Assembly: GCA_964504365.1 (NCBI GenBank)
Contig: CAZDDW010000002.1
Coordinates: 53,246-117,245, forward strand
Direction of reading: 5' to 3'
Origin: an uncultured Gammaproteobacteria bacterium
GTDB taxonomy: Bacteria; Patescibacteriota; Patescibacteriia; UBA9934; CAZDDW01
DNA length: 64,000 nucleotides
Below are positions 5,719 through 54,049 of the stretch, one piece after another (position 1 is the stretch's first letter; every line of letters begins with the position of its first letter). The notes under the pieces were generated by a model. It searched no databases and was not told the DNA's origin. It saw nothing but the letters and a program-made list of their open reading frames with translations. The position numbers and the translations under genes were made by a program.

Positions 5719-6600
5719 ATGAAATTGATTGATACACACTGTCACGTTCACTTTAACGCATACAAAAAAGATTCAGATGAAGTCATCCGGCGTTCTTTGG
5801 ACGCCGGAATTTTGATGATAACTGTTGGCACACAAACAGATACCTCCCGCAAGGCTATTGAAGTGGCAAATAAATACGATGGTGTTTGGGCGACTGTTGG
5901 TTTGCACCCGAATCATTTGTGTGAGCAAGAGTTTATGGATCCAAACGAGATCGAAGAGATTTCTACAGTGAAGACGCGGTGTGAAAAGTTTAACCCTGAG
6001 GATTATCGGGAAATGGCCAAGGATCCAAAGGTTGTTGCCATTGGCGAGTTTGGTCTTGATTATTTTCACTTACCTGAACAACTGGACCGTGATCAGTTGA
6101 TAGCAGATCAGAAAGAATCAATGTTAGCAGAACTTGATTTCGCGGATGAGCTTGATTTGCCAGTGATCATTCACAGCCGTGATTCACACGATGACCAAAT
6201 TGCATTGTTAAAGGATTATATTGGAAAAGGGAAGTTGGCTCGCCGAGGTGTGGTTCATTGTTATACTGGAACACTAGAACAAGCTGAGAAATATTTCGAG
6301 CTAGGTTTTCTGATCTCGTTCACAGGTATCATTACCTTTCCGCCACGACGAAGTGAGATTAGTGCTGGGGTCGAACTGACTGAGATTCAAGAGGTTGTAA
6401 AAAAAGTTCCGCTTGATAAAATCATGGTTGAAACAGATGCACCATATTTATCACCAGTACCGCAACGTGGTAAACGGAACGAACCAGCTTACGTTCAACA
6501 TGTTGCAGAAAAGATTGCTGAGTTAAAGGGCATGTCATTGGAAGAGGTGATTGAAACAACTGGTAACAATGCGCAAAAACTTTTTAATATCAAATTTTGA
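5719..6600 (+). CDS. tatD: TatD-family metal-dependent DNase/hydrolase
   Basis: N-terminal LIDTHCHV motif and TatD-like length and architecture. Confidence 0.8.
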   Translation: MKLIDTHCHVHFNAYKKDSDEVIRRSLDAGILMITVGTQTDTSRKAIEVANKYDGVWATVGLHPNHLCEQEFMDPNEIEEISTVKTRCEKFNPEDYREMAKDPKVVAIGEFGLDYFHLPEQLDRDQLIADQKESMLAELDFADELDLPVIIHSRDSHDDQIALLKDYIGKGKLARRGVVHCYTGTLEQAEKYFELGFLISFTGIITFPPRRSEISAGVELTEIQEVVKKVPLDKIMVETDAPYLSPVPQRGKRNEPAYVQHVAEKIAELKGMSLEEVIETTGNNAQKLFNIKF

Positions 6601-6602
6601 TT

Positions 6603-6636
6603 TCTGACATTTGTCCTGATCAGGACAAATGTCAGA
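6603..6636. repeat. Perfect 34-bp palindrome (TCTGACATTTGTCCTGA|TCAGGACAAATGTCAGA)
   Basis: Read directly from the sequence; the two 17-nt arms are exact reverse complements. No T-run follows on either strand, so it is not a canonical intrinsic terminator. It lies right after tatD at the low-GC/high-GC junction. Confidence 0.9.
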
Positions 6637-6645
6637 AAATAAAGA

Positions 6646-6671
6646 AGACGCTCGAGTGAGCGTCTTTGTTA
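6646..6671 (+). terminator. Intrinsic terminator after tatD
   Basis: AGACGCTC-gagt-GAGCGTCT hairpin followed by TTTGTT. Confidence 0.6.
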
Positions 6672-6762
6672 TCTAGCAAGTCCGAGTACCTGATGCGCGC
6701 CAGCAAAAGTAAAAGACGCCACCCGCGGGGGTGACGTCGATGAGAAACGTGAAGGAACTGGT

Positions 6763-8517
6763 CTAGGCTTGGTCTGCCGGCTGTTCCGAACTGGCCTCGG
6801 CTTCCTTCTCGGCCGCAGGTGCCGGTTCGGAAGGCTTGGCCTCGGTCTCGGCACCACTGGAGTCCGGTGCTTCGGCCGCAGGCTTACGAGGCCTACGGGG
6901 CCGACGCCGACTTCGCTTGCGCGGTGCCGGCTCCTCGGAACCTTCCTCAGCCGCTGACTCGGCTTCGGCTTCGGCCCTGGCTTCCTGGATCCGATCGACC
7001 AGTTGGTCGACCTGTTCCGAATCCACCAGACACCTGGCCGCCTTGATCAAGACGGTCGCCCGGAAACCCATGATTCCGGGATGAACACGCCCAGCCCAAC
7101 CACCACGACGCACGGCCTTGTAGCCGGTGTCATGTCCGCGGTCGAGCTGATCGAAGCTCACACCGAGCATGAGCTCGAGCTTGGCCAGGATCGTATCGGC
7201 ATCGGCATCGTCCTCGAGACCCAGAACCGTCAAGGCCTGGTATCTCTCGGGAACGCCGCTACCACGAACACTGAAGAGGAATTCCCCCTTGCCAAGAGCC
7301 AGCTTGATCGCGATTGCCCGTGCTTCACGCAAGAGCGCCTTGCGCACCTTGCGTCCGTCGGACGAGCTCGGATCACCAGACCACCTTGCGCTGCGCATGG
7401 CCTGGAAAGCCACATCTGAGGCATGGTCTGCCTGAAGCTGCTCGGACTTGATGACCAGAGCCGCATCGAACAGATCAGCCACCTCACCCTTGCCAGCACT
7501 CATGGTCTTGCCGACCAGAGCCATGACGTAGATCTTCACACGACCGCCGTCAGGCTGGGGAATCCAAACCTGGTTGTTGTACTTGGTCAGACCTGTCATG
7601 ACCAGCTCACGCCGGGCATCCTCGATGACCTGCAAACGCTCTTTGCGCCCCTGGTCAGAACTCGGATCACCCGGGAAGCCAGCATTGATCATGACCTGGA
7701 AGACCGGATCGTCAGCGCCTGGATCTCGAACATCGCTCAAGGCCTTGGCCCGCGCATCGACTGCGTTCGAACTGGTCTTGTCCGATTCGGAATCGAGTCC
7801 GAACATTTCCCAGCAGCTCATGAACGTACCAGTGCGTGCCACGATCGATCCCGGGGGACAGATCAGGGCTTCGGCCTTGGACTCATCGATCTTGACCGTG
7901 CCATCGTTGAACTCGCCGGCATCGACCATCTGCGCAGTTGCCCGCGCAGTGGCGTGGATCAAGCCAGGGTGCATCACCTTGAACATGATCGGAACCTGGG
8001 AACGATCCTTGACCGCACCGGCCTCGATCTCGTCGTCGTAGTACGGGGCCTCGTTCTGAGGACCGCGCCAGAGAACCTCTGCACCACGGAAATCACCGAT
8101 CCAACGCTGACCCTTCTTGGTGAAAGCGACGTAAAGGAAGTTGCGGTCAACAACCTCACCATCCAGCGCACCCTCTTCGCCGAGCCAGGTATGCTCGAAC
8201 ATCGGCCACGCCAGACTGGTGTTCCCGCGCATCGCAGACGGCTTCACAGCCACGCAGATGATCGGCGCACCCAAGCGCACCAACAGCCTGGTCGGATCCG
8301 GAATGACCACCTCGAATGTCTGGCCGCCTTCCACAGGCGTGAACTGACCAAGCACTCTTCCGCGATACAATCCATCTTCTCCCGTGGTACCAGGACCGTC
8401 GCTGCCAAAGAAGACCTGACCGTAGGAAAGATCACTCTGCCGGAAACGGTGTCCCAGCGGATGAAAAACCTCTCTGTTGATCCTGATCATCTCTTGTCTG
8501 TACATTTCGTCACTCAT
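6763..8517 (-). CDS. Hypothetical 584-aa protein from high-GC islet 1, with an internal duplication and a Lys/Arg/Pro-rich C-terminal tail
   Basis: Long ORF in a ~62% GC region, with GGAGG 7 nt upstream of ATG. Two internal segments resemble each other (SDVRDPGADDPVFQVMINAGFPGDPSSDQGRKERL and SDVAFQAMRSARWSGDPSSSDGRKVRK). The C-terminus (PRKRSRRRPRRPRKPAAEAP, followed by an acidic stretch) looks like a histone-H1-like disordered tail. A hairpin plus TTTTACTTTTG terminator follows downstream on the minus strand (~6700-6740). Confidence 0.6.
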   Translation of the reverse strand: MSDEMYRQEMIRINREVFHPLGHRFRQSDLSYGQVFFGSDGPGTTGEDGLYRGRVLGQFTPVEGGQTFEVVIPDPTRLLVRLGAPIICVAVKPSAMRGNTSLAWPMFEHTWLGEEGALDGEVVDRNFLYVAFTKKGQRWIGDFRGAEVLWRGPQNEAPYYDDEIEAGAVKDRSQVPIMFKVMHPGLIHATARATAQMVDAGEFNDGTVKIDESKAEALICPPGSIVARTGTFMSCWEMFGLDSESDKTSSNAVDARAKALSDVRDPGADDPVFQVMINAGFPGDPSSDQGRKERLQVIEDARRELVMTGLTKYNNQVWIPQPDGGRVKIYVMALVGKTMSAGKGEVADLFDAALVIKSEQLQADHASDVAFQAMRSARWSGDPSSSDGRKVRKALLREARAIAIKLALGKGEFLFSVRGSGVPERYQALTVLGLEDDADADTILAKLELMLGVSFDQLDRGHDTGYKAVRRGGWAGRVHPGIMGFRATVLIKAARCLVDSEQVDQLVDRIQEARAEAEAESAAEEGSEEPAPRKRSRRRPRRPRKPAAEAPDSSGAETEAKPSEPAPAAEKEAEASSEQPADQA

Positions 8518-8624
8518 TGTTCGCCTCCATCTGCCTCTTGGGCAGTATTCGTGTTGTTCTGGTTAAAATGACCGTTGTCGTCCTTTTTATTAGACTGATC
8601 AGACTACCATAGTTTTTTGCCTTT

Positions 8625-8681
8625 GTCAAGCCTAAATAGCCTAATTAAGGCTTGACAGAACTGGTATTTTGTGTTAACTTA
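8625..8681. promoter_or_regulatory. Symmetric divergent promoter
   Basis: TGTCAAGCCT (8625-8634) and AGGCTTGACA (8648-8657) are reverse complements, and each arm contains a TTGACA -35 box. On the plus strand, TTGACA is followed by 18 nt and then TGtTAACTT. On the minus strand, TTGACA is followed by 17 nt and then TGgTAGTCT. Confidence 0.6.
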
Positions 8682-8722
8682 GGTTGTTATTAGCTCATTC
8701 ACACACTTACGGAGGACAGTAA

Positions 8723-9739
8723 ATGGTCCCTGCAGACGAACGAGAAACGATCGATGACGAGACTCAGATGGATATCAGGGTCGTAGAAGCGAGTATCAGC
8801 CCCTGGGTTGATGATCTACGAACCAATTTCCCTTACTGGCCGGATGAGGATGACGGTGAACAGCCACCAACGTTCACCCAGGCCAGGGAAGAGGACGCCG
8901 CGGATGAACGCTTCCGAGAGCTTTGCGATGATTCTGGTCTAGCTGCTGATCTGATCATCATCGTTCTGGAAGGGATCGATACGGACCTGGAAACCGATCC
9001 TGTGCCGGAAGACCTGTTCCAGGAAGCTCGGAATCGGATCGAGGCAGAAGACGACAGCCTCACCGTTCAGCTGATTGACATTGCTCTGCGCTACCTCTTG
9101 TACACGGATTCGAACAACGAAGACGACAACAGAAAACACGCAGCAGCAATCAAGGATGCCTTGAGTCAGCCGGAAGCATCAAAGGAGGCGAATGAACCTG
9201 CGAAAACCGCAGCTGAGCCGAAGACTCCGGCCAAGCCCGGGGTTCCACCCAAGCCTTCGATGCCTGGAGAAGGTGGTGCAGAAGGTGGTAGGCCCGGAGC
9301 TTTGCGGAAGACTGATGGTACGCAAGAGCAGCCTCCTCCTCCCGAGAAGACTCCACCGGAGGCAACTACTCGAACTACTCAGCCGGCAGAACCGCCACCA
9401 CCGACGCCCCCAGATGGCTCGAGCGATGACGACCTCAAGGCAGAGCCACGCTACGTAGAGCTGCTTGCAGCTGCACAGCGAAACATCACCAAAGCAAGAG
9501 CTGGAGAAGCTCCGGCTCAGCTCTGGCTGGATGTGACTGTGTCAGACTTGCGTAAGGGAACAGGCGTTGGTTCACGAACCCACCCCAACCCGATTTACGC
9601 AAGACTGGCTGCTGATGGGACGACCATCCGAACAGGCTTCGATCACAGGGACAAGAACGCCCGTGCCAGAAGCCTTCTGGTCCGAGAAATCCAGGCTCTG
9701 GTCACTCAGGCCGGCCTGAAGATCAACCGCCTGCGTTAG
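8723..9739 (+). CDS. Hypothetical acidic protein with a Pro-rich linker (islet 1)
   Basis: 338 aa with a GGAGGA SD site. The N-terminus is acidic, the middle has PPKP/PPPPTPP low-complexity sequence, and a C-terminal domain follows. A TGCCGCTCAGC...GCTGGGCGGCA hairpin lies downstream at ~9750-9780. Confidence 0.6.
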   Translation: MVPADERETIDDETQMDIRVVEASISPWVDDLRTNFPYWPDEDDGEQPPTFTQAREEDAADERFRELCDDSGLAADLIIIVLEGIDTDLETDPVPEDLFQEARNRIEAEDDSLTVQLIDIALRYLLYTDSNNEDDNRKHAAAIKDALSQPEASKEANEPAKTAAEPKTPAKPGVPPKPSMPGEGGAEGGRPGALRKTDGTQEQPPPPEKTPPEATTRTTQPAEPPPPTPPDGSSDDDLKAEPRYVELLAAAQRNITKARAGEAPAQLWLDVTVSDLRKGTGVGSRTHPNPIYARLAADGTTIRTGFDHRDKNARARSLLVREIQALVTQAGLKINRLR

Positions 9740-9868
9740 CAGGAACTCATTGCCGCTCAGCTCAGCTGGGCGGCATCTTAATTTCCATAAATTTTATACC
9801 CTTGATCTTTTTACGCCTTTGTTATACACTACGGGCGAAATTTTTAGGCTAGTGAATACATTTACTCT

Positions 9869-17782: not shown

Positions 17783-18415
17783 ATGGCTAACGCACTAGGC
17801 GTCAACCCAACCCGACAAGAACTGCTAAAACTCAAGGTTAAACTTAAAACCTCTGAGCGTGGTTATAAGTTACTCAAAGACAAGCGTGATGGTTTGATGA
17901 AACAGTTCATGGAGATCATTCGTGAAGCCAAGGATCTGCGTGAAAAAGTTGAAGCTGATCTGTCAGTTGGATTTCAAGCTTACTTGTTTGCTTCTGCTAA
18001 GACTTCGCCAGATCTGTTGAAAAGCGCTTTCTTATTGCCTTCGATGAAAACTTATCTGCAGGCTGACGTGAAGAATGTCATGTCTGTGAACGTGCCAGTA
18101 TTCGAGTACAAGGAAGAAGGCGACTTTTTGTCTTATGGATTCAGTTTTACAGCCTCAGAGCTTGATACGGCGCTGAAGAGTTTCTCAGAAAGCTTGAAAG
18201 ATATGGTTCGTCTCGCTGAGGTAGAGCATAGCGCCAAGTTGCTAGCAGAAGAGATCGAAAAAACACGTCGACGAGTAAACGCGCTTGAATACGTCTTCAT
18301 TCCAAAGATGAAAGAAACAATCAAATACATCCAGGCCAAGCTAGCAGAACAAGAACGCGGAACGATTATCACACTGATGAAGGTCAAGGATATGTTGGTA
18401 GAACAGGAGGGATAA
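17783..18415 (+). CDS. ntpD: V/A-type ATP synthase subunit D
   Basis: The N-terminus MANALGVNPTRQELLKLKVKLKTSERGYKLLKDKRDGL is typical of subunit D. This is the last gene of the operon. Confidence 0.85.
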   Translation: MANALGVNPTRQELLKLKVKLKTSERGYKLLKDKRDGLMKQFMEIIREAKDLREKVEADLSVGFQAYLFASAKTSPDLLKSAFLLPSMKTYLQADVKNVMSVNVPVFEYKEEGDFLSYGFSFTASELDTALKSFSESLKDMVRLAEVEHSAKLLAEEIEKTRRRVNALEYVFIPKMKETIKYIQAKLAEQERGTIITLMKVKDMLVEQEG

Positions 18416-18429
18416 AATAGATTAAATAG

Positions 18430-18468
18430 GCGGGGTCCCTTGACCCCGCTTTTTGTTTATGCTAAGTT
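18430..18468 (+). terminator. Intrinsic terminator of the ATPase operon, fused to an islet promoter
   Basis: GCGGGGTC-cctt-GACCCCGC hairpin followed by TTTTTG. The TTGACC inside the 3' arm, followed by 17 nt and TGcTAAGTT, forms a promoter for the downstream islet gene. Confidence 0.7.
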
Positions 18469-18496
18469 CTGGCCAGGACATTGAAAGGAGACACTT

Positions 18497-19162
18497 GTGA
18501 AAATCGACGGAAACGAATTCGTTGTTGCTTCTTCTGACATCGGACGCATCAGAGCTGGGTACATCTTCATGCGCCGGGCTGAGCGAGAGGGCTGCCGGGT
18601 CGAAGACCTGGACAAGCTTCAGGTTCGTTTCCAAAACGGACCCGAGACAAGCTCGTATACCCAGGTGGAACTCCAGCACCTGCTCGACCTGATGGGCCAA
18701 TCTTGCAGCGAAACCGACGTCCTGCGTGAACTCGGGATCGTGCCCGGTTACCGCGGGCATCTGCCCCCGGCCTGGAAGGCCGCCTACCTCTACCGCGGTG
18801 ACCAGGAGTTCCTGCTCGGTGACATCTGGCTCGACGAGTCTGCTGTTTGCCGAATCGCCCGGCGTCTGCACAGCATGCAGCAGGACGAAGAAGAGCACTG
18901 CGTGACCGTTGTCCTGCGCGAGACCTTGCCCGAAGAACTCTTCGACAAGCCGGACCAACTCACGCCCGAACAGGTACGTGAGCATGCCGCCATCGTCATC
19001 AGGCATGGCGAAATCATCTTCAGCGTCCCGTCCCACCGTGACGGCTGGGGCCCGCGTGGATTCGGTGAGCTGGCCATCAGTGCACTGAATGGCAGCTTCC
19101 TGGCCCTACTCGAACACGCCAAGTTCACCTCCACCCGCCTGCACACGCCGGCAAGCTCCTAG
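18497..19162 (+). CDS. Hypothetical protein, paralog 1 of an islet-2 pair (GTG start)
   Basis: 221 aa in high-GC sequence, with an AAAGGAG SD 7 nt before GTG. It shares domain order and motifs with the next gene (…F(Q/E)NGP…Y..V.LQ.LLD.M..SC.E.D(V/I)LR…(I)VPG(Y/F)…). A hairpin plus T7 terminator lies at 19169-19195. Confidence 0.65.
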   Translation: MKIDGNEFVVASSDIGRIRAGYIFMRRAEREGCRVEDLDKLQVRFQNGPETSSYTQVELQHLLDLMGQSCSETDVLRELGIVPGYRGHLPPAWKAAYLYRGDQEFLLGDIWLDESAVCRIARRLHSMQQDEEEHCVTVVLRETLPEELFDKPDQLTPEQVREHAAIVIRHGEIIFSVPSHRDGWGPRGFGELAISALNGSFLALLEHAKFTSTRLHTPASS

Positions 19163-19254
19163 CACTTCAGCGACCACACTGGTCGCTTTTTTTATATCTT
19201 GACATAGCACTTAGTCCATGCTAAGTTCTGCTCAGCACCTTGAAAGGAGCGAAG

Positions 19255-19911
19255 ATGGAACCCACGCCAAACGGAGTTCACATTCTCGATACTGACATCG
19301 GCAATGTTTCTGCGCTAGACGTTTTCCGTCTCGACGCCGAGACCGAGCGTGAGCGCGACCTGGAGCACCCGGATCACATCCTGGTCACCTTCGAAAACGG
19401 CCCTGGGCCAGCTGAGTACGACCGTGTTGCTCTTCAGCTTCTGCTCGATCGCATGAGCATGTCCTGTGGTGAGGGCGACATCCTGCGCAAGATCAAGATC
19501 GTTCCTGGCTTCATGGGCATAACGTTTCCAGCCCACTGGGAGGACGTGGTCCTGTTCGATGGTAATGGCAATTACCTGGTCCACCCTGTCTCGCTCGACG
19601 AGGTCGCTGTGGTCCTTATCGCCAAGAGTCTGCATGACGAAAAGCTGTTCGGTGAGCGCCATGCCGTAGTCGTACTGCGTCGCTCAGACCTGCCCGAGGA
19701 CTGGAAGCCCGGTGATTCGATCGAGGCCGAGTTCATGATGAACACAGCCACCATCGTCATCAACCACAACAACGTCTACCTGCTTTCGTCTGGTGCCCAA
19801 CACTACAAGGCGATCAGCTTCGGTGACGTTCACATGGCCAAGCGCCAACAGCGTGACTCGCACTCCTTCACCATGTACACCTCGACCCGTTTGCGGCCGC
19901 CGATGCCGTAA
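19255..19911 (+). CDS. Hypothetical protein, paralog 2 of an islet-2 pair
   Basis: 219 aa with an AAAGGAG SD. The upstream leader ATGCTAAGTTCTG…TTGAAAGGAG is nearly identical to that of paralog 1. A CCCGC…GCGGG+T5 terminator lies at 19920-19940. Confidence 0.65.
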   Translation: MEPTPNGVHILDTDIGNVSALDVFRLDAETERERDLEHPDHILVTFENGPGPAEYDRVALQLLLDRMSMSCGEGDILRKIKIVPGFMGITFPAHWEDVVLFDGNGNYLVHPVSLDEVAVVLIAKSLHDEKLFGERHAVVVLRRSDLPEDWKPGDSIEAEFMMNTATIVINHNNVYLLSSGAQHYKAISFGDVHMAKRQQRDSHSFTMYTSTRLRPPMP

Positions 19912-19979
19912 CGCACACACCCGCCTCAGCGCGGGTTTTTAATTCGTGGAAAAGATGGGGATATTAAAAACAAAAACCC

Positions 19980-20008
19980 TTGACACGAATGCCTAGGATC
20001 GATACGCT
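19980..20008 (+). promoter_or_regulatory. Sigma70-like promoter (TTGACA-17-TACGCT) with no ORF downstream
   Basis: TTGACA is at 19980-19985 and TACGCT at 20003-20008. No ORF of 60 aa or more follows on either strand before the terminator at ~20232. Confidence 0.5.
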
Positions 20009-20015
20009 GGAAGTG

Positions 20016-20262
20016 AGCCGGGGATCGCGCTAGTTTAGTTAAGTTCAAGAGGGTAGGACTGTGAAAACAGAAACCGATCTGCGGGAGGAACAAAGCACTG
20101 AAAGAGACGGGGATCGCATAGGAAGCTATAAAGTCACTGCAACTCTACGAGTGTCATGACCTGATAAGGTACAGCCTTTCAAAGGGGGAAGACCCTGAAG
20201 AACACCTGGATTGGAGAACTCGGCTCAAACAAAAAACTGACCCTGCGGTCGGTTTTTTGTAA
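20016..20262 (+). ncRNA. Candidate ~245-nt small RNA (unclassified)
   Basis: Bounded by the promoter above and by a hairpin terminator ACTGACC-ctgc-GGTCGGT+TTTTTTGT at 20234-20262. The complementary ends GAGCCG (20017-20022) and CGGCTC (~20222-20230) can close a long stem. No coding potential was found. Confidence 0.4.
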
Positions 20263-20265
20263 TCT
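20228..20265. terminator. Bidirectional intrinsic terminator (A-run/hairpin/T-run)
   Basis: CAAACAAAAAACTGACCctgcGGTCGGTTTTTTGT reads as a hairpin with a U-run on both strands. It would serve the plus-strand sRNA and the minus-strand gene 20294-20611. A second hairpin GACAGGC-gtaa-GCCTGTC lies at 20270-20288. Confidence 0.6.
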
Positions 20266-20293
20266 GAGGGACCGACAGGCGTAAGCCTGTCAT

Positions 20294-20611
20294 TTAAGTT
20301 CCTTGCTCGACTCGCTGCAATGCATGTAACTCAGCGTTGAGCTGCTGAACACCAGGATGCTGATCAGTATAACTATAGCCTTTTAGCAAATCTCGATCAC
20401 CTGTAATACTGCGTCGAGCATCTTCAATTTTAGCTTTTCGTGTAGCTCCTTCAAGGCCTTCAAATCGCTGTGCAAACACGATCATGGCCTGCTGAATGGC
20501 TGCGCTGTCTAGTGTATCAGCCGAAACCATGTCTGGTTGTGATTCAACCTCAGGCACCATGCTGGCCGCAGCTTCTTTTTGAGCTGCTCGTTTACCAAAA
20601 AATTCTAACAT
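20294..20611 (-). CDS. Hypothetical 105-aa protein (islet 2)
   Basis: ORF with an upstream TTGACA-17-TAAGAT promoter on the minus strand at ~20640-20670. Confidence 0.45.
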   Translation of the reverse strand: MLEFFGKRAAQKEAAASMVPEVESQPDMVSADTLDSAAIQQAMIVFAQRFEGLEGATRKAKIEDARRSITGDRDLLKGYSYTDQHPGVQQLNAELHALQRVEQGT

Positions 20612-20698
20612 AAAGTATCAGTTAATTTTTGTTTATCTTAGGCTGTTTGGGGTCAAGTGTCAAGGGTGACTAAGAAGGGAATGACACACTTCAGTGTG

Positions 20699-21052
20699 TC
20701 ATTTGACAGACTTACGTCTGTCAGTCCCACAAAGAAACAACACCCCAATCACCAGTAACGGCAATGTCGTGACAAGTAAAGAGAACAGCATTTCTTCAAG
20801 ATTGAACAGGAAAATCGGGAGCATAGCCAGCAGCACAAACATCCACCCGCCGATACCCGGTCGTATCCAAGAAACCCATAATGCGCCCAGGATCAATAAC
20901 GTCGGGACGTTGTGCATGAATAACGCAACAATCATCTCGTACCAGTGATAATCTTCTGCAAAAACATCGAGGGACATTAGGGCAAAGAAGACGGCGAGCA
21001 AGATAACCAGAACTCGCGGAAGCCATTTGAGAACTTTGTTTAGCATACTCAT
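20699..21052 (-). CDS. Hypothetical small membrane protein (3-4 TM helices), islet 2
   Basis: Hydrophobic ~117-aa ORF. The start is reassigned to MSMLNK so that the upstream palindrome and the TTGTGTCAAG…TGcTAGAAT promoter become non-coding. Two perfect hairpins, ATGACACAC-ttca-GTGTGTCAT and TGACAGAC-ttac-GTCTGTCA, sit at and within the 3' end (20681-20723). Confidence 0.55.
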   Translation of the reverse strand: MSMLNKVLKWLPRVLVILLAVFFALMSLDVFAEDYHWYEMIVALFMHNVPTLLILGALWVSWIRPGIGGWMFVLLAMLPIFLFNLEEMLFSLLVTTLPLLVIGVLFLCGTDRRKSVK

Positions 21053-21067
21053 ACATTCTAGCACACC

Positions 21068-21093
21068 TGTCACGTCGCTCGCGAGCGACGTGA
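21068..21093. promoter_or_regulatory. Perfect 26-bp palindrome GTCACGTCGCTCG|CGAGCGACGTGAC between the -35 and -10 elements (candidate operator)
   Basis: Exact reverse-complement symmetry, read directly. It lies between divergent genes 20699-21052(-) and 21160-21489(+). Confidence 0.7.
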
Positions 21094-21159
21094 CTTGACA
21101 CAATCAACTTTATCTGATAAGTTACTTCCTTCTCAACGAAGACAAAGGAGGGAAGTACT

Positions 21160-21489
21160 TTGGAACTCAGACATCGAGAATTGGTGAGAATAAACCTGGA
21201 AGGCGCCACGATCATCGAGCATCGTCCGGATTGCCCAGTGGCTGGCAAGATCGACACCGCAAGCTTGGCTGCTGTGATCGGGATGAGCTGGAGACACCTC
21301 GAAGACGGAACGTGGCGTGACACCGTGTTCACGACCGATTCCTGGCGATTCGAGCGACAGGGCGACGTGATCTTCTTCCACCGCACCGAACCCAACGATG
21401 TGTCACGTGGTTTCGATCAGCCCGACCTCACGACCGATCTGTACACCATCGTCCTGCCGAACACGCGGGAAGTCAGCCCTGGCTGGTAG
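21160..21489 (+). CDS. Hypothetical 109-aa protein (TTG start), islet 2
   Basis: AAGGAGG SD 7 nt before TTG, high-GC codon usage, and a terminator at 21514-21538. Confidence 0.55.
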   Translation: MELRHRELVRINLEGATIIEHRPDCPVAGKIDTASLAAVIGMSWRHLEDGTWRDTVFTTDSWRFERQGDVIFFHRTEPNDVSRGFDQPDLTTDLYTIVLPNTREVSPGW

Positions 21490-21513
21490 GACCGTTTACC
21501 TCAGACTCCACTT

Positions 21514-21570
21514 GACCCACCTCGGGTCTTTTTCTTTTGGGTTGACAATTTGTGTAGATTCAAATATATT
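21514..21570 (+). promoter_or_regulatory. Terminator-promoter module copy 1
   Basis: GACCCacctcGGGTC hairpin, then TTTTTCTTTTG, then TTGACA (21543-21548), 16 nt, and TATATT. Confidence 0.7.
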
Positions 21571-21605
21571 AACGCTGGTTCCTGAACAAAATTACAGGAG
21601 AAATC

Positions 21606-21944
21606 ATGCTTCCAGGCAACCGGCCAACAGGAAGAAGAATGACAAAACAAGGTCCGCAAGAAGCCAGAAGACTCCCGGACCAAGTCAGCGGCCCTCTGCT
21701 GTACTCGTATCTCCAAGGCATAGCCCGCGCCATGACTGACGGGGCAGTATTGATCAACAGTACGACAACCACTTTCTCGCGTGCCAGCGTCATTTCTGTT
21801 CTCAAGGCACAGAACATCCATGAGAGTGACATCGCCGAGGCCATCACGTACTGCTTGGATAATGATCTACTCATCGAAGAACACGATGGCTTCCACATGA
21901 CCACCTTCGGGCTGACCAGTACTCGCCCCAAGCGCCGGTTATAG
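21606..21944 (+). CDS. Hypothetical small protein, paralog 1 of a tandem islet-2 pair (possible winged-helix DNA-binding fold)
   Basis: 112 aa. Its C-terminal ~75 aa align with the next gene: LLYSYLQGIARAMTDG…FSRASVISVLKAQNIHESDIAEAITYCLDNDLLIEEHDGFHMT against SLYSRLWDVATAMSAG…FPRASIVAVLQSMGIREERVERAIQYCLRNGLLEERDDGFHLV. Confidence 0.6.
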   Translation: MLPGNRPTGRRMTKQGPQEARRLPDQVSGPLLYSYLQGIARAMTDGAVLINSTTTTFSRASVISVLKAQNIHESDIAEAITYCLDNDLLIEEHDGFHMTTFGLTSTRPKRRL

Positions 21945-21994
21945 CAAAACCAATGGACACACACTGGGCCTAGCCCCATCTAGACCTAAATCTC

Positions 21995-22054
21995 GACCCG
22001 TAAACTGGGTCTTTTTTCTTTTGGGTTGACAAAATACGTGGAAATTGGTTTACT
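21995..22054 (+). promoter_or_regulatory. Terminator-promoter module copy 2
   Basis: GACCCgtaaactGGGTC hairpin, then TTTTTTCTTTTGGGTTGACAA, 17 nt, and TTTACT. Confidence 0.7.
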
Positions 22055-22093
22055 TGTCCCAGAACGATCATTCATACACGAAAGGGGCAACAA

Positions 22094-22438
22094 ATGCTCT
22101 CAGACAACTATCCCAATGAATGCAGGGAACGGCAGCAACCGCGACGAGACCCTCGGCCCAGGGGTCCCATGGTCGACAGCTTCTCGCTGTACTCTCGGCT
22201 GTGGGACGTAGCCACGGCCATGTCCGCAGGCGGCAAGGGGTTCCCCAGGGGAACCGAGATCGCTTTCCCACGCGCCAGCATCGTGGCCGTGCTCCAGTCT
22301 ATGGGTATTCGTGAAGAGCGAGTCGAACGGGCCATCCAGTACTGTCTGCGCAACGGCCTGCTCGAGGAGCGTGATGATGGTTTCCACCTGGTCCAGAGCG
22401 AGCTGTCGTCCTTCCGCATGACGATGCGCCGCATCTAG
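22094..22438 (+). CDS. Hypothetical small protein, paralog 2 of the tandem pair
   Basis: 114 aa with an Arg/Pro-rich N-terminus. The C-terminal domain is paralogous to 21606-21944. Confidence 0.6.
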   Translation: MLSDNYPNECRERQQPRRDPRPRGPMVDSFSLYSRLWDVATAMSAGGKGFPRGTEIAFPRASIVAVLQSMGIREERVERAIQYCLRNGLLEERDDGFHLVQSELSSFRMTMRRI

Positions 22439-22871: not shown

Positions 22872-25820
22872 ATGCCCGACAACCTACTTGAAAACCTAAA
22901 TGAAGAGCAACTCCAAGCTGCAATGCACAAGGAAGGACCTCTTATGATTATTGCTGGCGCAGGAACGGGGAAGACTACTGTGATTACACAGCGTGTGGCC
23001 TGGTTGATCGAGCAGAAGCTAGCAGAACCAGACGAGGTTTTAGCATTAACGTTCACGGAAAAGGCAGCCACTGAAATGGAAGAGCGTGTCGATCGTTTGC
23101 TACCCATGGGTTATGTTGATCTTTGGATCTCTACGTTCCATGCTTTTTGCGAACGAGTGCTTCGTGACTACGGAGTTGAGATCGGGCTGTCACGAAATTT
23201 TAAACTATTATCTGAAATTGATACCTGGCTGCTGATGCGCCAGAATTTTGATAGGTTCGAACTGGACTATTATCGGCCTTTGGGAAATCAGACAAAATAC
23301 TTGAAATCATTGCTTCAACATTTTTCTCGAGCCAAGGACGAAGTGATAACACCTGAAGAGTATCTGAGGTTTGCTGAGGAGCAGAAAGCGAGCCTGGATA
23401 CAAAGACATCAAACGACGAAGCAACGACTGAAGTAGCTCGGCTTGAAGAGCTGGCTAATGCGTATCACACGTACCAACAGATTTTGCTTGAGAATGACGC
23501 CATGGACTTTGGTGATCTGATAATGTACACATTGCACCTGCTTCAGAAGCGCCCGAAGATCCTAAAGGAACTTCGAGACAAATTTAAGTACGTGCTAGTA
23601 GATGAGTTTCAAGATACCAACTGGGCGCAATACGAATTAATCAAATTACTTGCTGCTCCGAAAAACAATGTTACGGTTGTTGGAGATGATGATCAGTCAA
23701 TTTATAAATTTCGTGGTGCTTCGCTGTCAAACATTCTGCAATTCGAAGTTGACTATCCAGACGCGACGCAGGTTGTGCTGACCAAGAACTACCGCACAGT
23801 GCAATCGATCTTGGACCATGCCTATAACTTTATTCAAAAAAACAATCCGAACCGACTCGAGACTCAACCGCGGGATAAACCGTTATCAAAGCAACTTGTG
23901 GCACATCGCGAAGAAGCTGGGCTAGTCGAGCACATGCACTTTAAAACTTTGGATCTGGAAGTTGAGGGTGTGGCTGATCGGATTCTTGAATTAAAAAAAC
24001 AATATCCAGATGCAGACTGGTCTGACTTTGGAATCCTGGTTCGAGCAAATGATAGCGCGAACAATTTCTTGTCTGCACTAGAACGCCGCGGTATTCCATA
24101 TCAGTTCCTGGCCCTGCGTGGTCTATACACGAAACCGATAGTTCTGGATCTTTTGTCATATATGCACGTAATCGACAATCCATACGATAGCCCTAGCTTT
24201 TATCGAATCCTAACGCATCCGATGCTGGATATCGCACACGAGGATCTAACGAAGATTAATTTCGAAGCATATAAAAAAGGCCGTTCAACTTTTGAGATCC
24301 TGCAGTCAGCAAAGTCAATCACAGGAATGAACGAGGAAACGTATCAGAAAATCGATGCTTTGTTATCACTACTTGCAGACCTAGCACAAGAAGCTAAGAC
24401 AAAGCCCGTGACCGAAATGGTCGTAACAATCATGCAAAAATCTGGGATATTAAAGTACGCGCAAACATTGCCAGAGCAAGATGAACACGATGCGTTTAGA
24501 TATTTACATCAGTTCTTTGAGCGAGTGAAACGATTCGAAGCACGGGCAGACCACAAGGCACTGAAAAACTTTTTGTTTGAGTTCAAGTTCGAACGCGATG
24601 CTGGAGAAGAGGGAAGTCTGCAGTTTGATATTGAGTCTGGACCGGACATGGTCAAGTTAATGACCGTGCATGGATCCAAAGGCCTGGAGTTTCGTTTCGT
24701 GTTCGTGGTCAACATGATTGATCAACGCTTCCCAACAATCCGTCGCAAGGATCCAATTCCATTACCTGACGATTTGGTTAAAGAAAAAGTTCCTGAAGGT
24801 GATGTCCACCTGGAAGAAGAGCGGCGTTTGTTTTATGTCGCGATCACGCGCGCCAAAGAAGGTTTGTTCTTAACTTCAGCCGAAGATTACGGCGGCGTGC
24901 GCAAACGCAAATTATCGCGCTTTATGCACGAGCTAGAAATTGTCGACGATAAAGCACTCACCCCAAACGAATCCGTCGGCCCATTCGAAGATAATCGGGA
25001 AAATGTACCGACCAGGACAAATGTCCGAAATGTTGTGTATACGATTCCGAAGCATTTTAGCTTTACGCAATTAGCTGCTTTTGCTACTTGTCCTTTGCAA
25101 TATAAGTTTGCTCATCTGCTCAAGATTCCTGTATTCGGTAAATACCAAATGTCGTATGGAAAAACCATGCACAATACATTGCAAGAGTTTTTCAGGGTTT
25201 GGATTGAACGACAGAATGCTCCGCAGCAGAATCTATTCGGAGACGCAGGTGATTCACCAATCGATCCTGTACCTGTATCATCAGATGAACTCACAAAAAT
25301 CTACGAAGAACAATGGATCGACGACTGGTATCCAAACAATAAGGTTCGCGAAGAATATAAACAAAAAGGACTAGATACGTTTAAGGACTACTGGAAGCAG
25401 CTCAAAACTGAACCGCCGAAACCTAATCAACTAGAAATAGGATTCACTCTCAAGATCGATGACCTGGTTCTTAAGGGTCGGATAGACCGCATCGATGATA
25501 TCGAGGGTGGGGTAGAGATTATCGACTACAAGACAGGAAAAGCAAAAGAGAAACTAAGCAAGGATGACAAAAGACAGCTCTTGATCTACCAGATCGCAGC
25601 TGTTGAATGTCTTGGTCTTGTTCCAAAAAAGTTGACTTATCACTACTTAGACAACAATACAACGGTCTCATTCTTGGGCACACCAAAAGAACTTGAAGGG
25701 TTGAAAACCGATCTGCTCGCAGCTTTAGAAAAAATCAAAGAAAGCAACTTCAACGCCACCCCAGGATTCAATTGCCGCTTCTGCGACTTCGCTGATATCT
25801 GTGAATTTAGGAAACTATAA
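22872..25820 (+). CDS. UvrD/PcrA-type SF1 helicase fused to a C-terminal Cas4/AddB-like Fe-S PD-(D/E)xK nuclease
   Basis: Walker A AGAGTGKT and helicase motifs (DEFQDTN, VGDDDQSIY, VHGSKGLEF). The C-terminus has a nuclease core (IDRIDD…IIDYKTGK…YQ) with a Cys set (C…CRFCDFADIC). The start is taken at MPDNLL, because the 72-nt GC-rich extension upstream has GACGCGCGAC direct repeats and looks like junction sequence. Confidence 0.85.
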   Translation: MPDNLLENLNEEQLQAAMHKEGPLMIIAGAGTGKTTVITQRVAWLIEQKLAEPDEVLALTFTEKAATEMEERVDRLLPMGYVDLWISTFHAFCERVLRDYGVEIGLSRNFKLLSEIDTWLLMRQNFDRFELDYYRPLGNQTKYLKSLLQHFSRAKDEVITPEEYLRFAEEQKASLDTKTSNDEATTEVARLEELANAYHTYQQILLENDAMDFGDLIMYTLHLLQKRPKILKELRDKFKYVLVDEFQDTNWAQYELIKLLAAPKNNVTVVGDDDQSIYKFRGASLSNILQFEVDYPDATQVVLTKNYRTVQSILDHAYNFIQKNNPNRLETQPRDKPLSKQLVAHREEAGLVEHMHFKTLDLEVEGVADRILELKKQYPDADWSDFGILVRANDSANNFLSALERRGIPYQFLALRGLYTKPIVLDLLSYMHVIDNPYDSPSFYRILTHPMLDIAHEDLTKINFEAYKKGRSTFEILQSAKSITGMNEETYQKIDALLSLLADLAQEAKTKPVTEMVVTIMQKSGILKYAQTLPEQDEHDAFRYLHQFFERVKRFEARADHKALKNFLFEFKFERDAGEEGSLQFDIESGPDMVKLMTVHGSKGLEFRFVFVVNMIDQRFPTIRRKDPIPLPDDLVKEKVPEGDVHLEEERRLFYVAITRAKEGLFLTSAEDYGGVRKRKLSRFMHELEIVDDKALTPNESVGPFEDNRENVPTRTNVRNVVYTIPKHFSFTQLAAFATCPLQYKFAHLLKIPVFGKYQMSYGKTMHNTLQEFFRVWIERQNAPQQNLFGDAGDSPIDPVPVSSDELTKIYEEQWIDDWYPNNKVREEYKQKGLDTFKDYWKQLKTEPPKPNQLEIGFTLKIDDLVLKGRIDRIDDIEGGVEIIDYKTGKAKEKLSKDDKRQLLIYQIAAVECLGLVPKKLTYHYLDNNTTVSFLGTPKELEGLKTDLLAALEKIKESNFNATPGFNCRFCDFADICEFRKL

Positions 25821-32166: not shown

Positions 32167-32754
32167 ATGACAGGGCAGAGAAGCCTTACTGACATGATTC
32201 GTGAAGACCTGGTGTGGGAACCGAGCGAGGATGAGTTGACCGAACTGATGGCCAACAGCGAACCGATCCGGATTGATCCCGTACGTCAGGCGGCTTTCGC
32301 ACAAAAGATGCGGCAGCGCTGCGAGCTTGCTCGTCAAGACCAACCACTACTCCAGCGAGCACGCCGGCTGTTGACCGAGTATCTGGACGATCTGACCCGC
32401 CCATTCGCGGAAATGACCTTTGTTAACTTCCTCGAGCTGCTCAGGCGCGATCTGGGGATAGATGACGAGCGTCTGGCTCGAGTGTTCCTTGCCAGCCCTG
32501 CACTGTTCGCAGAACTCAAGGAGCCGTACGTCTACGACATCCACGGCCTGGCCAACCTGCTCGGAGGTCTAGGCATGGATCCATGTGACTTCGAAACCTC
32601 GATGCGCATCCCGGATCGTATCGAGCACTGGGACCTGGCTCCACTGACCTGGATCACGAACCCGGAACCTCCGACCACATATCTCAACCGGCCGCACTGG
32701 CTGTATCAGCTCGAAGAGGTACTGCACCGTCGGCAGATGGAGCTTGCCTCATGA
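32167..32754 (+). CDS. Hypothetical 195-aa protein (islet 3)
   Basis: High-GC ORF with a GGGGG SD. Confidence 0.5.
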   Translation: MTGQRSLTDMIREDLVWEPSEDELTELMANSEPIRIDPVRQAAFAQKMRQRCELARQDQPLLQRARRLLTEYLDDLTRPFAEMTFVNFLELLRRDLGIDDERLARVFLASPALFAELKEPYVYDIHGLANLLGGLGMDPCDFETSMRIPDRIEHWDLAPLTWITNPEPPTTYLNRPHWLYQLEEVLHRRQMELAS

Positions 32755-32939
32755 CCAGGGGTGCACGACGACGTCCCACCCCAGACGAACTCGAAGAGCG
32801 CGAACGAACTGCTCGCGGCATCGAACGCTTTGTGGAACAGCTGCCACCTGGCAGAGCTCGTGACACGATTGCCAAGCTGGCTGATATCGCTCGCAGCAAG
32901 AACCGTCGCGCCTTGCATCCGCACAGCTGCTCTCACTGA
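32751..32939 (+). CDS. Hypothetical 62-aa Arg-rich protein, translationally coupled to the preceding gene (ATGA overlap)
   Basis: The start overlaps the stop of 32167-32754. A CCCCACAcctGTGGGG+CTTTTTCTTTT terminator follows at ~32943-32972. Confidence 0.4.
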   Translation: MTRGARRRPTPDELEERERTARGIERFVEQLPPGRARDTIAKLADIARSKNRRALHPHSCSH

Positions 32940-33018
32940 CACCCCACACCTGTGGGGCTTTTTCTTTTCACAAATTTATGCTAAGCTCAGCGTGCTGTTT
33001 TACAAAAGGGAGGACGCA

Positions 33019-33402
33019 ATGTTCGATTGGAAACAGGCAGAAAAAGTAGCCAAACGTCTGGAGCAAGAACCAGAGCACACCGAAAGCCTGACTTGGATGA
33101 CAAAATTCATTGCCGGTAGCACGGTAATGGAATGGCTCATCTGTGTCATGATGATGACCACACTCAGTTTTGGTGTCGCGAACATTGGTCAAACAGTTGG
33201 CCTCAACGAGCATATCAGTCTTGTACTGGTCTTCCTGATCGGACTGACCTGTCTGTACTGCTGGGGCTCTGTGGCCTTTAGTAAGTTCACTCTGGTCTTT
33301 TTCGATCTCAAGCGCTGGCGCTGGTCGTCTTCGTTCTTTCCCTTGGCTGCATACTGCCTGATCTTCGGTATTTTCATGTCTCTTAGAGAATCATCTGGAT
33401 AG
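33019..33402 (+). CDS. Hypothetical membrane protein (3-4 TM helices), islet 3
   Basis: AAGGGAGG SD 5 nt before ATG. An ATGCTAAGCT-type promoter lies upstream. Confidence 0.5.
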   Translation: MFDWKQAEKVAKRLEQEPEHTESLTWMTKFIAGSTVMEWLICVMMMTTLSFGVANIGQTVGLNEHISLVLVFLIGLTCLYCWGSVAFSKFTLVFFDLKRWRWSSSFFPLAAYCLIFGIFMSLRESSG

Positions 33403-48009: not shown

Positions 48010-48561
48010 TTATTCTTCGGCTAAATAAACTTTGACCCAATCTTCAGCGTCTATTTCTTTAACTAAGGCGCGTAGATCGTTGACAACATCTTTTTTACTA
48101 CGCCACAGACTAAGATGAACAATCTCGAACTCGGCCTCTTTGAGCAAGTTCCTAATCACCCAACGAATATTTCTCACATGTTCTGGAATATCATACGAGA
48201 CCAAACAACACTTACCTTTAGATAATTCCTTTTTGGTGTCGATCACCTTCTGTTTTAAAACTTCGATCCGACCGCGGTCAGTCAATGAAACCAGGATCTT
48301 ATCGCCCTTGTCATCTAATTTAATTAACTCCTGTTCCACTAAACGTTTCTGTGCCTGCAGTTTTGCTTTTCTTTCCAGGCGCCTAGCTTGAATATTGGCT
48401 CCTCGCATCTGTCCCCTGACCAAACCGTAAGCTCCGCTCAACATATTTTTCTCTATTTGCGACGGCTGATCAAGCAAGTGTAATTTCCGATTCAATTCCC
48501 CGAGTTCATTTCTAGTTTTTGATCTTTTATATGTTGTTCTTCTCTTTTGCTCTTCAGACAT
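48010..48561 (-). CDS. Hypothetical basic protein with a C-terminal Cas2/VapD-like sequence pattern
   Basis: 183 aa. The N-terminal half is Lys/Arg-rich coiled coil. The C-terminal LVSYDIPEHVRNIRWVIRNLLKEAEFEIVHLSLWRS follows the Cas2 core pattern (hhhhYD[IV]…R…+.L…G.R.Q.S[VL]). The assignment is uncertain. Confidence 0.5.
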   Translation of the reverse strand: MSEEQKRRTTYKRSKTRNELGELNRKLHLLDQPSQIEKNMLSGAYGLVRGQMRGANIQARRLERKAKLQAQKRLVEQELIKLDDKGDKILVSLTDRGRIEVLKQKVIDTKKELSKGKCCLVSYDIPEHVRNIRWVIRNLLKEAEFEIVHLSLWRSKKDVVNDLRALVKEIDAEDWVKVYLAEE

Positions 48562-52438: not shown

Positions 52439-52813
52439 TTAGATTCCGGACTTGAACTCGACCGGGACCTGGAAGACGTGGTTGGGCTCGATGTCGCGAG
52501 CTTCCATCCAAGCCTTGAGGGCTCTGAGCTGCAACCTGACAGGGTCATGGCCGCAATAGTAAGTCGTATCGCCTCTTACCTGAACCTCGCAGTCCATTGT
52601 CAGAACTAATTCCAGATCTCCATTGGATCGACGAACATGTACCACACCTTCTGGTCGTTTATCTTCGTCAACGATGAGCTGAAAACTCAGACCATGCTCT
52701 CGCACTCCCGCTTCACTGACTGGAATGATGGCTAGTCCAGTTTGCTCGGTCAAGTCACCCTTGGCCTCGGGTGAAAACACGATAGCCACGAAACCGATTT
52801 TCTCAACAGTCAC
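52439..52813 (-). CDS. Hypothetical 124-aa protein (GTG start), islet 5
   Basis: AAAGGA SD before GTG; high GC. Confidence 0.5.
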   Translation of the reverse strand: MTVEKIGFVAIVFSPEAKGDLTEQTGLAIIPVSEAGVREHGLSFQLIVDEDKRPEGVVHVRRSNGDLELVLTMDCEVQVRGDTTYYCGHDPVRLQLRALKAWMEARDIEPNHVFQVPVEFKSGI

Positions 52814-52919
52814 AGTGTTTCCTTTCTCTGTGGATTGTAATGGTTCAATGAATTAGACCTTAACAATCCTGTTCAGACTTGTCAAAATAAAAGACTCCGC
52901 AGTGATGCGGAGTTTTGAG

Positions 52920-53771
52920 TTACTCCTCCTCGCCGTTGTCGTCTTCTTCATCCGGATCCGGCTGTTGCTGGATCGGTCCTTCTGGCTGAACAAAGAAGAC
53001 TGGCCTGGCTTCTAGCTCGGTCGCCGGAATCCCTTCGTCCTGCAACAACTTTAGTAAAGCCGATTCGAACTCACCGAAAGTTGCGTGCACAAATTTGGGA
53101 CGAAAGCGCTCCTCAACGGAGTCAAAGAACTCCAGATGATCCCAAATATCTCCTGCCGGAAACATGTATGAGAACCGCGGATGACTACTTGTCCCTATAC
53201 CAGCACTAAATCGCACTGGCACTGTCTGGATCAACAGGCGGGCCACCGGTTCATCAATCCCACCTCCTGAGAACTGGGGGTACTTTAAATCAACGATTAG
53301 TTGTCTGCCCCCTGCCAGGAAACAGCGCAAATCAAATTTGACACCGGAAAGCAATATTGAGAAAAAGGACATTCTCCTGTCATCTTCATAATCAGGACTG
53401 CACCTATCCGATATGACGTAACGACCTCGTTCCCTGCTCAGTGATGGTAAGCGGAGCTCGTTCCTTTCGACACGCTTCCCGTAATACCCACGCAACGTTT
53501 TACGGTTTCGATCAAGTAGCGCTTGTGCCACCTGATCTTTATAGGTTGGCCGACCCTTGGCAGCCACACCCTTATTCATCCAACGCCAATCAGCTTGTAG
53601 CTGCTTGAAATCAGGTGGCAAGAGTCGACAGTCGGCTGGCACAAAATCAGGATCAGCATGCATCCTTTTCAGGTGCTCAACGCTTCGCGACAGCAAGAGC
53701 AACTTCTCGTAGAAGTCACGCATACCACACTGCGCGATATCGCGCCAAAGTTCGGAAGTAAAAAGAGCCAT
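52920..53771 (-). CDS. Hypothetical 283-aa protein with an acidic C-terminal tail (islet 5)
   Basis: GGAGATG SD. A terminator ACTCCGCA…TGCGGAGT+TCTTTTATTTTGACAAG lies downstream on the minus strand. Confidence 0.55.
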   Translation of the reverse strand: MALFTSELWRDIAQCGMRDFYEKLLLLSRSVEHLKRMHADPDFVPADCRLLPPDFKQLQADWRWMNKGVAAKGRPTYKDQVAQALLDRNRKTLRGYYGKRVERNELRLPSLSRERGRYVISDRCSPDYEDDRRMSFFSILLSGVKFDLRCFLAGGRQLIVDLKYPQFSGGGIDEPVARLLIQTVPVRFSAGIGTSSHPRFSYMFPAGDIWDHLEFFDSVEERFRPKFVHATFGEFESALLKLLQDEGIPATELEARPVFFVQPEGPIQQQPDPDEEDDNGEEE

Positions 53772-54049
53772 TTCATCTCCAGGCTTGTTGGAATTATCAC
53801 CGGTCTTTTTTCAAAGACGCATTGCCCTACTAGCCAAGCAGGATCGGGACACCCCAAGCTCCATTTCAGAGCTACATCCGGGGAGGTTCCTACAGCCCAC
53901 CTCTATTTCAGAGGTGTTGTCACATGCACCACGCACCAAGCTGTATTCTGCACTTTTCAGCACATCTCTTCTGGATGACATGAAGAGGACTTTCACCTTA
54001 ACAACCCAAACCTATTTCGTCAAAAAAAATCTCCGCATGGGTTGCGGAG

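Follow-up and report, generated by a model that had tools for sequence, protein, structure and literature searches.

How should one read a short, GC-rich islet whose two genes fit no recognised family and point away from each other across what looks like a single mirror-symmetric stretch of DNA? The islet in question lies in a window of 64,000 nucleotides (nt), the whole stretch of contig CAZDDW010000002.1 (GenBank assembly GCA_964504365.1) that was analysed here. It holds a large gene on the reverse strand and a smaller, divergent gene for an acidic protein; both open reading frames (ORFs), first proposed in a sequence-only reading of the window, were confirmed at 6763..8517(-), with 584 amino acids (aa), and 8723..9739(+), with 338 aa.

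Our answer is that the pair is a native two-gene module with two outward-facing promoters, that the inverted repeat between the genes consists of the −35 boxes of these promoters, and that the products may be strongly expressed, non-enzymatic partner proteins. We hold with considerable confidence that the module is native and conserved, that the two promoters are real, and that the repeat represents their −35 boxes. The role given to the proteins is a tentative suggestion and, taken by itself, rather unlikely, and we rate the statement as a whole, promoters and protein role together, as moderately probable.

The two genes had been described as orphans in an islet, a description that, where islet is taken to mean a foreign insertion, does not survive a wider search. 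Word-indexed searches of 5.8 billion proteins returned only the protein itself and the fragment P0003 (179 aa, 77% identity), which derives from mesopelagic Tara material. When 1.84 billion representatives were searched exhaustively with HMMER, three relatives appeared: this fragment, P0004 (36% identity over residues 28-557, expect value (E) 3e-64), which is encoded near tatD with a divergent 409-aa partner, and P0005 (26% identity, E 1.5e-4), which belongs to the genome locus L011. The alignment with these relatives is collinear. In NCBI, P0005 and its cluster mates carry the name Patescibacteria group bacterium, with one listed as Candidatus Uhrbacteria. The large gene is taken here as the founding member of a small family restricted to the Patescibacteria.

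The chromosomal setting carries the argument further. In the window MetRS, CvpA, and TatD are encoded upstream of the pair and a V-type ATPase operon downstream, in the order tatD, large gene (-), acidic gene (+), V-ATPase operon, with tatD and the large gene convergent. The same arrangement of TatD, large gene, divergent gene (here of 298 aa), and V-ATPase operon is found in L011 and in the near-identical L016 and L017, which differ mutually by 0-3 bases per gene. Three further loci, L013, L014, and L015, were recovered by scanning genome collections with V-ATPase subunit I, scans with the family alignment having yielded none; all three carry a 510-593-aa gene (-) and a 273-381-aa acidic gene (+) in the same slot, and between L014 and L015 the large proteins are 47% and the small proteins 33% identical. 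The slot is therefore filled alike in all five lineages for which there is DNA (the window, the L011 group, L013, L014, and L015).

Ten metagenome contigs (L001-L010) also carry the locus of the window, the islet being identical except for N gaps and one base in L008. These gaps (L008 ~1403-1414, L010 ~1371-1417, L009 ~741-762) lie on or beside the promoter palindrome or in the large gene, and they mimic indels and a frameshift in the gene calls; they are assembly artefacts from three independent assemblies. It should also be noted that the metagenome-assembled genomes of L013 and L014 are titled uncultured Gammaproteobacteria bacterium, as against Patescibacteria for the syntenic proteins of the L011 group, and that one of these labels is probably wrong.

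Could the islet nevertheless be recently acquired DNA from a GC-rich donor, such as a genomic island or the remnant of a prophage or plasmid? Its guanine plus cytosine (GC) content rises by ~17-20 points with sharp edges: the pair spans 6601-9800 at 56-60% GC in a window of ~43% GC overall, and the neighbouring genes stand at ~0.41 versus 0.60 for the large gene and 0.57 for the acidic gene. There are no annotated relatives, and near-identical 12-nt direct repeats, CGTCTTTGTTAT (6661-6672) and CGCCTTTGTTAT (9814-9825), bracket the pair, with a weaker third copy at 8579-8590; given the ancient synteny, these repeats are probably due to chance. The same slot with the same filling, however, recurs in lineages that share no more than 52-71% of TatD identity with the window, and the variable presence among related genomes that characterises an island is not seen, five of five lineages being occupied. 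The intergenic promoter DNA is host-like at 40-42% GC. There is no integrase and no transfer RNA (tRNA) gene at the locus, a tRNA scan and an Rfam scan of the window both being empty, and the 1.84 billion representative proteins include no relative from a GC-rich organism. PHROGs gave no match either, nor did a tblastn search against 50,697 phage and 72,556 plasmid records, and two scans of viral contigs were empty. Synteny has already largely refuted a foreign origin, which we regard as highly improbable. The pair does share with compositionally atypical genomic islands a sharp GC anomaly and a gene content without known family, but it differs from them in that the anomaly runs towards higher GC, is coding-only, and is strongest at third codon positions, and in that the pair holds its slot in diverged lineages without mobility genes or phage or plasmid relatives.

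This anomaly deserves a closer description. Both coding sequences are GC-rich at all codon positions in every lineage, most of all at the third (GC3). The large gene has a GC3 of 0.68 in the window and 0.84-0.90 in its relatives, and the small gene ranges over 0.555-0.79 across lineages; the flanking genes have a GC3 of 0.36-0.52. The window's large gene uses the lysine codons AAG and AAA at 25:1, versus 62:98 in housekeeping genes, and the third positions of the L014 large gene contain 2% A and 7% T. Because the excess is confined to coding sequence, sits at silent sites, and persists across deep divergence, it does not look like the trace of a recent transfer. The proteins themselves have changed a great deal: identity between lineages is 17-47% for the large protein and 15-33% for the small one, versus 52-78% for TatD and 55-79% for V-ATPase subunit I. 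Both evolve several times faster than their neighbours.

One could also ask whether the two ORFs are simply chance open frames in non-coding, GC-rich DNA. Long ORFs do occur on both strands here, among them a 382-aa antisense ORF at 7423..8571, but the sense ORFs show collinear protein similarity (36% and 26% identity across ~500 residues), have promoters, Shine-Dalgarno sites, and terminators all in the right places, and the large gene has GC3 > GC1 > GC2 (third, first, and second codon positions) in every lineage. For the two sense ORFs this possibility is already refuted, and what probability we leave it is negligible. The antisense ORF was itself considered as a gene and rejected, an equal or longer ORF being found in 39% of synonymous shuffles.

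We now turn to the DNA between the genes. The inverted repeat reported there is present, its pattern occurring once in the window and in none of 100 shuffles, although its spacer measures 14 nt and not the 13 nt first given; its arms match perfectly for 10 nt, or for 14 nt if one mismatch is allowed. Each arm provides a perfect TTGACA, followed after an exact 17-nt spacer by a weak −10 element of the form TAnnnT with TG at −15/−14. The proposal of two divergent genes on back-to-back extended −10 promoters, each with its own TTGACA, is upheld by comparison: both promoters fit a −35 TTGACA, a 16-18-nt spacer, TG at −15/−14, and TAnnnT in five of five lineages. The leftward −10 element reads TAGTCT in the window, TAGACT in L011, TATTTT in L013, TATTCT in L014, and TAATCT in L015; the rightward one reads TAACTT, TACATT, TATATT, TATCTT, and TATCTT in the same order. 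The pattern TTGACA-N14-TGn-TAnnnT is found in L011, L013, L014, and L015 (62 kilobases (kb) in total) only at the two sites of the pair in each locus. The window has five matches, namely the two of the pair and three beside other GC-rich genes of no known family, so that over the ~126 kb examined this form of promoter adjoins such genes only. Because the remaining intergenic DNA of the pair is poorly conserved across lineages and these footprints stand out within it, there is strong evidence that both extended −10 sites are real promoters.

Does the symmetry of the repeat mean anything more? It had been suggested that one protein-binding site could co-regulate both genes, and the repeat could accordingly be a true operator for a dimeric regulator, possibly either product, that switches both genes together. 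Besides the near-perfect arms, whose symmetry runs 4 nt past the −35 hexamers, this would account for the 1-3 extra flanking bases that both boxes share in every lineage, for the base at −36, which is equal within a locus and differs among lineages, and for the 22-nt distance between the −35 hexamers that the window and L013 have in common. That distance, however, is 42 nt in L011 and 70 nt in both L014 and L015: each −35 box is conserved with its flanks and the dyad is not, whereas an operator for a dimeric regulator should keep its half-sites at a fixed distance, and a series of 22, 22, 42, 70, and 70 nt misfits one dimer on a fixed dyad. The sequence TTGACAA(A) also starts other promoters in the window, which makes the shared flank partly a general extended −35 element, and neither product has a recognisable DNA-binding domain. 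Since the distance between the boxes varies in this way, the palindrome is most likely two outward-facing extended −35 elements with a consensus of about CTTGACAAA, and not a separate operator; a true operator we consider unlikely. The arrangement resembles known closely spaced, divergent sigma-70 extended −10 promoters in its outward-facing TTGACA boxes, 17-nt spacers, and TG at −15/−14, the predicted starts lying ~90 base pairs apart with overlapping upstream regions. It is unlike them in that a perfect palindrome of 10 nt arises from the −35 boxes together with their flanks and in that the pair of promoters has been kept across deep divergence while its spacing changed.

Several observations weigh against a native module with two ordinary promoters, and they should be kept in mind. 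The two −10 hexamers in the window each match only three of the six consensus positions (TATAAT), and a generic promoter scanner, which requires at least four of six in the −10 element, hence misses both. The −36 base is identical in the two promoters of each lineage (C/C, C/C, C/C, G/G, and A/A), so that a symmetric factor keeps some plausibility. A module of this kind does not account for the persistent GC3 excess. Finally, the large protein of L013 matches only marginally (E 0.0015), in the repeat module described below, and no similarity between the L014 or L015 proteins and those of the window was detected by BLAST, by hidden Markov model (HMM) search, or by hhalign. Because sequence similarity is absent or marginal in these three loci, the orthology of their pairs rests on position, architecture, composition, and promoters.

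What, then, do the proteins look like? That neither belongs to a known family has stood up to searching. Scans of both proteins and their relatives with Pfam, PHROGs, NCBIfam, and PADLOC gave nothing beyond low-complexity matches to Glu-Pro (EP) and Lys-Pro (KP) repeats; PADLOC, which covers known anti-phage defence systems, had no match at E ≤0.1 for seven family members or positional counterparts, and no match to PDB sequences was obtained with the single protein, the family profile, or the repeat profile as query.

The large protein has a beta-rich N-terminal part, three helical units, and a tail predicted to be disordered. The internal duplication of ~45 aa that had been noted is borne out, residues ~268-312 and ~365-409 being 42% identical over 45 aa (Smith-Waterman z = 12.3, 0 of 500 shuffles), and it turns out to belong to three units of ~95 aa, the third copy being weaker (z = 3.2). 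A full-length AlphaFold model is poor (mean predicted local distance difference test (pLDDT) 49.8), with strands at residues 127-192, the three helical units, and the disordered tail, and a Foldseek search with it gave no significant match. A single repeat unit, by comparison, is modelled confidently as a small helical domain, and its best structural matches, all weak, are J or J-like domains.

This raises the possibility that the three units are functional J domains and the large protein a co-chaperone of Hsp70 (DnaK). The likeness remains below significance in both Foldseek and hhalign, where the repeat profile reached 5% probability against five J domains, and is best taken as a lead on the fold and not as a family assignment. 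PF00226 has no match at E ≤1 in the window's large protein or at ≤0.1 in its relatives. The His-Pro-Asp (HPD) tripeptide, which J domains carry in the loop between helices II and III, is absent from all 11 repeat units that were aligned; unit 2 reads KSE at this place, and unit 3 retains the His (H462), followed by D/S/P and then T/A. Unlike DnaJ/Hsp40 proteins (PF00226) and the HPD-less J-like domains of the Tim16/Pam16 type, the units have no Pfam match, and they come as three tandem copies, each with an extra long helix and a beta-hairpin. We consider a co-chaperone of this kind very unlikely.

The tail was the basis of another proposal, namely that the large protein binds or packages nucleic acid. 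The basic patch followed by an acidic stretch is there, at residues 532-546, with 10 Arg/Lys among the 15 residues of PRKRSRRRPRRPRKP; P0004 retains the patch, L014 and L015 have Lys-rich counterparts of it, and the partner protein has a net charge of −26. Weak Foldseek matches to small beta-barrels (OB, TRAM, and eIF1A-like) over residues ~127-192 point the same way. One could thus picture a protein whose basic tail serves in nucleoid association, nucleic-acid packaging, or RNA binding, with the acidic protein as its chaperone or antagonist. The patch is missing, however, from P0005 and L013, and the tail as a whole has a net charge of −2; the barrel matches are non-significant (all E >0.1) and come from a model with a mean pLDDT of 50, and no nucleic-acid-binding family was matched. 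The tail is not supported as a marker of packaging, and a search for a capsid, portal, or nucleoid fold or family found none. The patch recalls histone H1 and Hc1-like nucleoid proteins, as well as arginine-rich motifs, in being a short, basic, Pro-containing, predicted-disordered stretch near the C-terminus. An extended, family-conserved Lys/Ala/Pro-rich basic domain of the H1 or Hc1 kind is not present, the patch being rich in Arg rather than Lys/Ala, limited to 15 residues, continued by an acidic extension, and missing from some family members. All this leaves the nucleic-acid role distinctly doubtful.

The product of the small gene is, as had been stated, strongly acidic with a Pro-rich linker. 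A charge of −30 falls on residues 1-150; a Pro-rich section (~150-235) follows, and the C-terminal ~90 residues are basic. The linker resembles the rigid (Glu-Pro)n/(Lys-Pro)n spacers of TonB, and in L014 the protein at the corresponding position carries long EP/KP repeats, which match TonB linker models by low complexity only. In contrast to TonB, a TonB C-terminal domain is lacking, nothing outside the linker matches Pfam or NCBIfam, and no hydrophobic N-terminal stretch is seen when the translations are read by eye, no predictor having been used. In L014 (7455-7560) and L015 (7375-7452) the small gene as listed begins with TTG or GTG and takes in its own promoter; translation probably begins at internal ATGs (MAEYSF... 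and MADDATSY...).

Put together, the pair is most probably a vertically inherited, lineage-specific module of a clade of tiny Patescibacteria (candidate phyla radiation, CPR), with a fixed chromosomal place that has tatD on one side and the V-type ATPase operon on the other. Each of the two genes makes up a monocistronic unit with a strong-looking, near-consensus promoter of the sigma-70 extended −10 type, a GGAGG site, an ORF, and its own intrinsic terminator, and RNA polymerase would read the inverted repeat once in each direction as back-to-back −35 boxes. The large protein would combine its beta-rich N-terminal part with three ~95-aa helical modules of J-domain-like topology that lack HPD, and with a disordered, charged tail; in the small protein, a Pro-rich spacer would lie between an acidic domain and a basic C-terminal part. 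Both evolve fast while their codons stay strongly GC-rich. The products may be abundant and may have a scaffold or adaptor role towards other proteins or nucleic acid, perhaps with the acidic protein binding to, or neutralising, the basic regions of its larger partner.

Table 1. Features of the divergent gene pair and its surroundings (positions in the window)
Feature	Position	Strand	Remarks
Perfect palindrome	6596..6643	.	24-nt arms, no loop; overlaps tatD stop codon, between convergent tatD and large gene
Second intrinsic-terminator-like hairpin	6645..6666	-	downstream of large gene
Intrinsic-terminator-like hairpin	6715..6738	-	10 pairs, 7 G-C, T-run; 25 nt past large-gene stop
Large gene	6763..8517	-	ORF list; 584 aa; GC 0.60, GC3 0.68
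Predicted disordered C-terminal tail, residues 521-584	6766..6957	-	pLDDT <50 from residue 528
Arg-rich basic patch PRKRSRRRPRRPRKP, residues 532-546	6880..6924	-	then acidic Ala/Glu/Pro/Ser stretch
Repeat unit 3, residues 428-525	6943..7236	-	weakest copy
Repeat unit 2, residues 331-427	7237..7527	-	modelled alone, pLDDT 80; weak J-like fold matches
Repeat unit 1, residues 230-330	7528..7830	-	from model and self-comparison
N-terminal part, residues 1-229	7831..8517	-	beta-rich in model, poorly modelled; conserved with P0004 and P0005
Shine-Dalgarno GGAGG, large gene	8524..8528	-	read from sequence; 6 nt ahead of ATG
Leftward promoter	8601..8629	-	TTGACA 8629..8624, 17 nt, TGG-TAGTCT 8606..8601; kept in L011, L013, L014, L015
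Inverted repeat TGTCAAGCCT-N14-AGGCTTGACA	8624..8657	.	arms TGTCAAGCCT 8624-8633 and AGGCTTGACA 8648-8657; two −35 boxes plus 4 nt each side
Rightward promoter	8652..8680	+	TTGACA 8652-8657, 17 nt, TGT-TAACTT 8675-8680; kept in L011, L013, L014, L015
Shine-Dalgarno GGAGG, acidic gene	8711..8715	+	read from sequence; 7 nt ahead of ATG
Acidic (small) gene	8723..9739	+	ORF list; 338 aa; GC 0.57, GC3 0.555
Intrinsic-terminator-like hairpin	9751..9775	+	11 pairs, 8 G-C; 12 nt past acidic-gene stop

Of the local structures in Table 1, the palindrome at the end of tatD probably serves as a terminator or as a hairpin that marks a boundary; elsewhere in the window it is matched only at 25012-25030, inside a helicase gene, by a copy of one arm with two mismatches. 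A consistently conserved structure was looked for in the 5' leaders of the pair across lineages, and none was found. The predicted leader of the large gene in L014 (7247-7362, (-)) is a long, near-perfect hairpin (z = -4.8, 0 of 200 shuffles); L015 is comparable (z = -2.25), and the leader in the window has no such hairpin (z = -0.8). Between the acidic gene and the V-ATPase operon, L014 also encodes a 177-aa protein (8808-9341) of normal, low GC with a PaaX central Cas2-like domain. Its winged-helix match is weak and below the cut-off, and a similar 183-aa protein is encoded in the window at 48010-48561.

Is the pair alone of its kind? At least 11 more candidate ORFs in the window have a GC3 of 0.52-0.76 and no Pfam family, in GC-rich stretches at 18497-19911, 21160-22438, 32167-33402, and 52439-54842. 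Among them are two paralogue pairs, 18497..19162 with 19240..19911 (36% identity) and 21606..21944 with 22094..22438 (38% identity). Promoters of the form TTGACA-N17-TAnnnT, often with a −10 of TAAGTT, stand ahead of several (19199, 20635(-), 21095, 21542, and 52885(-)). The promoter-like sites at 21542 and 22480 have the same upstream context, TTTGGGTTGACAA, and nearby minus-strand translations repeat, which suggests a tandemly duplicated cassette of gene plus promoter. In L014 a stretch of 57-62% GC (20000-21950) lies just past the V-ATPase operon, in the same position as the second GC-rich stretch of the window (18401-20000); no sequence similarity was detected between it and the window's proteins from that stretch. 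All five of the extended −10 sites in the window adjoin GC-rich ORFs without family. The further candidate ORFs and the pair studied here look like one gene class.

Such a class, distinct to this CPR clade, would consist of fast-evolving, family-less genes, each with its own consensus extended −10 promoter and terminator, whose coding sequence, unlike its promoter, is actively kept GC-rich against the AT bias of the genome. We put this forward as a speculation that is unlikely to hold. A dedicated process would maintain the enrichment: it might be strong local GC-biased gene conversion or repair, or selection for a codon set or a property of the messenger RNA; such selection could be tied to an episymbiotic lifestyle, for example if the genes or transcripts were used in a GC-rich partner cell. 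A search of the literature on GC-rich gene classes in CPR found no description of a coding-confined GC3 enrichment of this kind. What is unusual here is this persistent, coding-confined enrichment in family-less genes that have the best promoters of the region; the regulatory layout is conventional, and the protein families of the pair are undescribed, like many in CPR.

About half of the genes of CPR/Patescibacteria are without assigned function, and fast evolution is often seen in genes for interaction with hosts or phages. With its conserved position, clear expression signals, and fast evolution, the pair could be a tractable example for this group. Genes that are family-less or foreign are usually expected to be AT-rich and to drift to the composition of their host, and a coding-confined GC3 excess that survives across lineages with only 52-79% identity in TatD and V-ATPase subunit I runs counter to this expectation. 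Should there be no maintaining force behind the excess, the symmetric operator would still be explained as two ordinary promoters, and the foreign islet as native DNA. If, on the other hand, the excess reflects a real maintaining force, it would provide a new handle on the balance of mutation and selection in reduced genomes, as well as a simple sequence signature by which the specialised genes of the lineage may be found.

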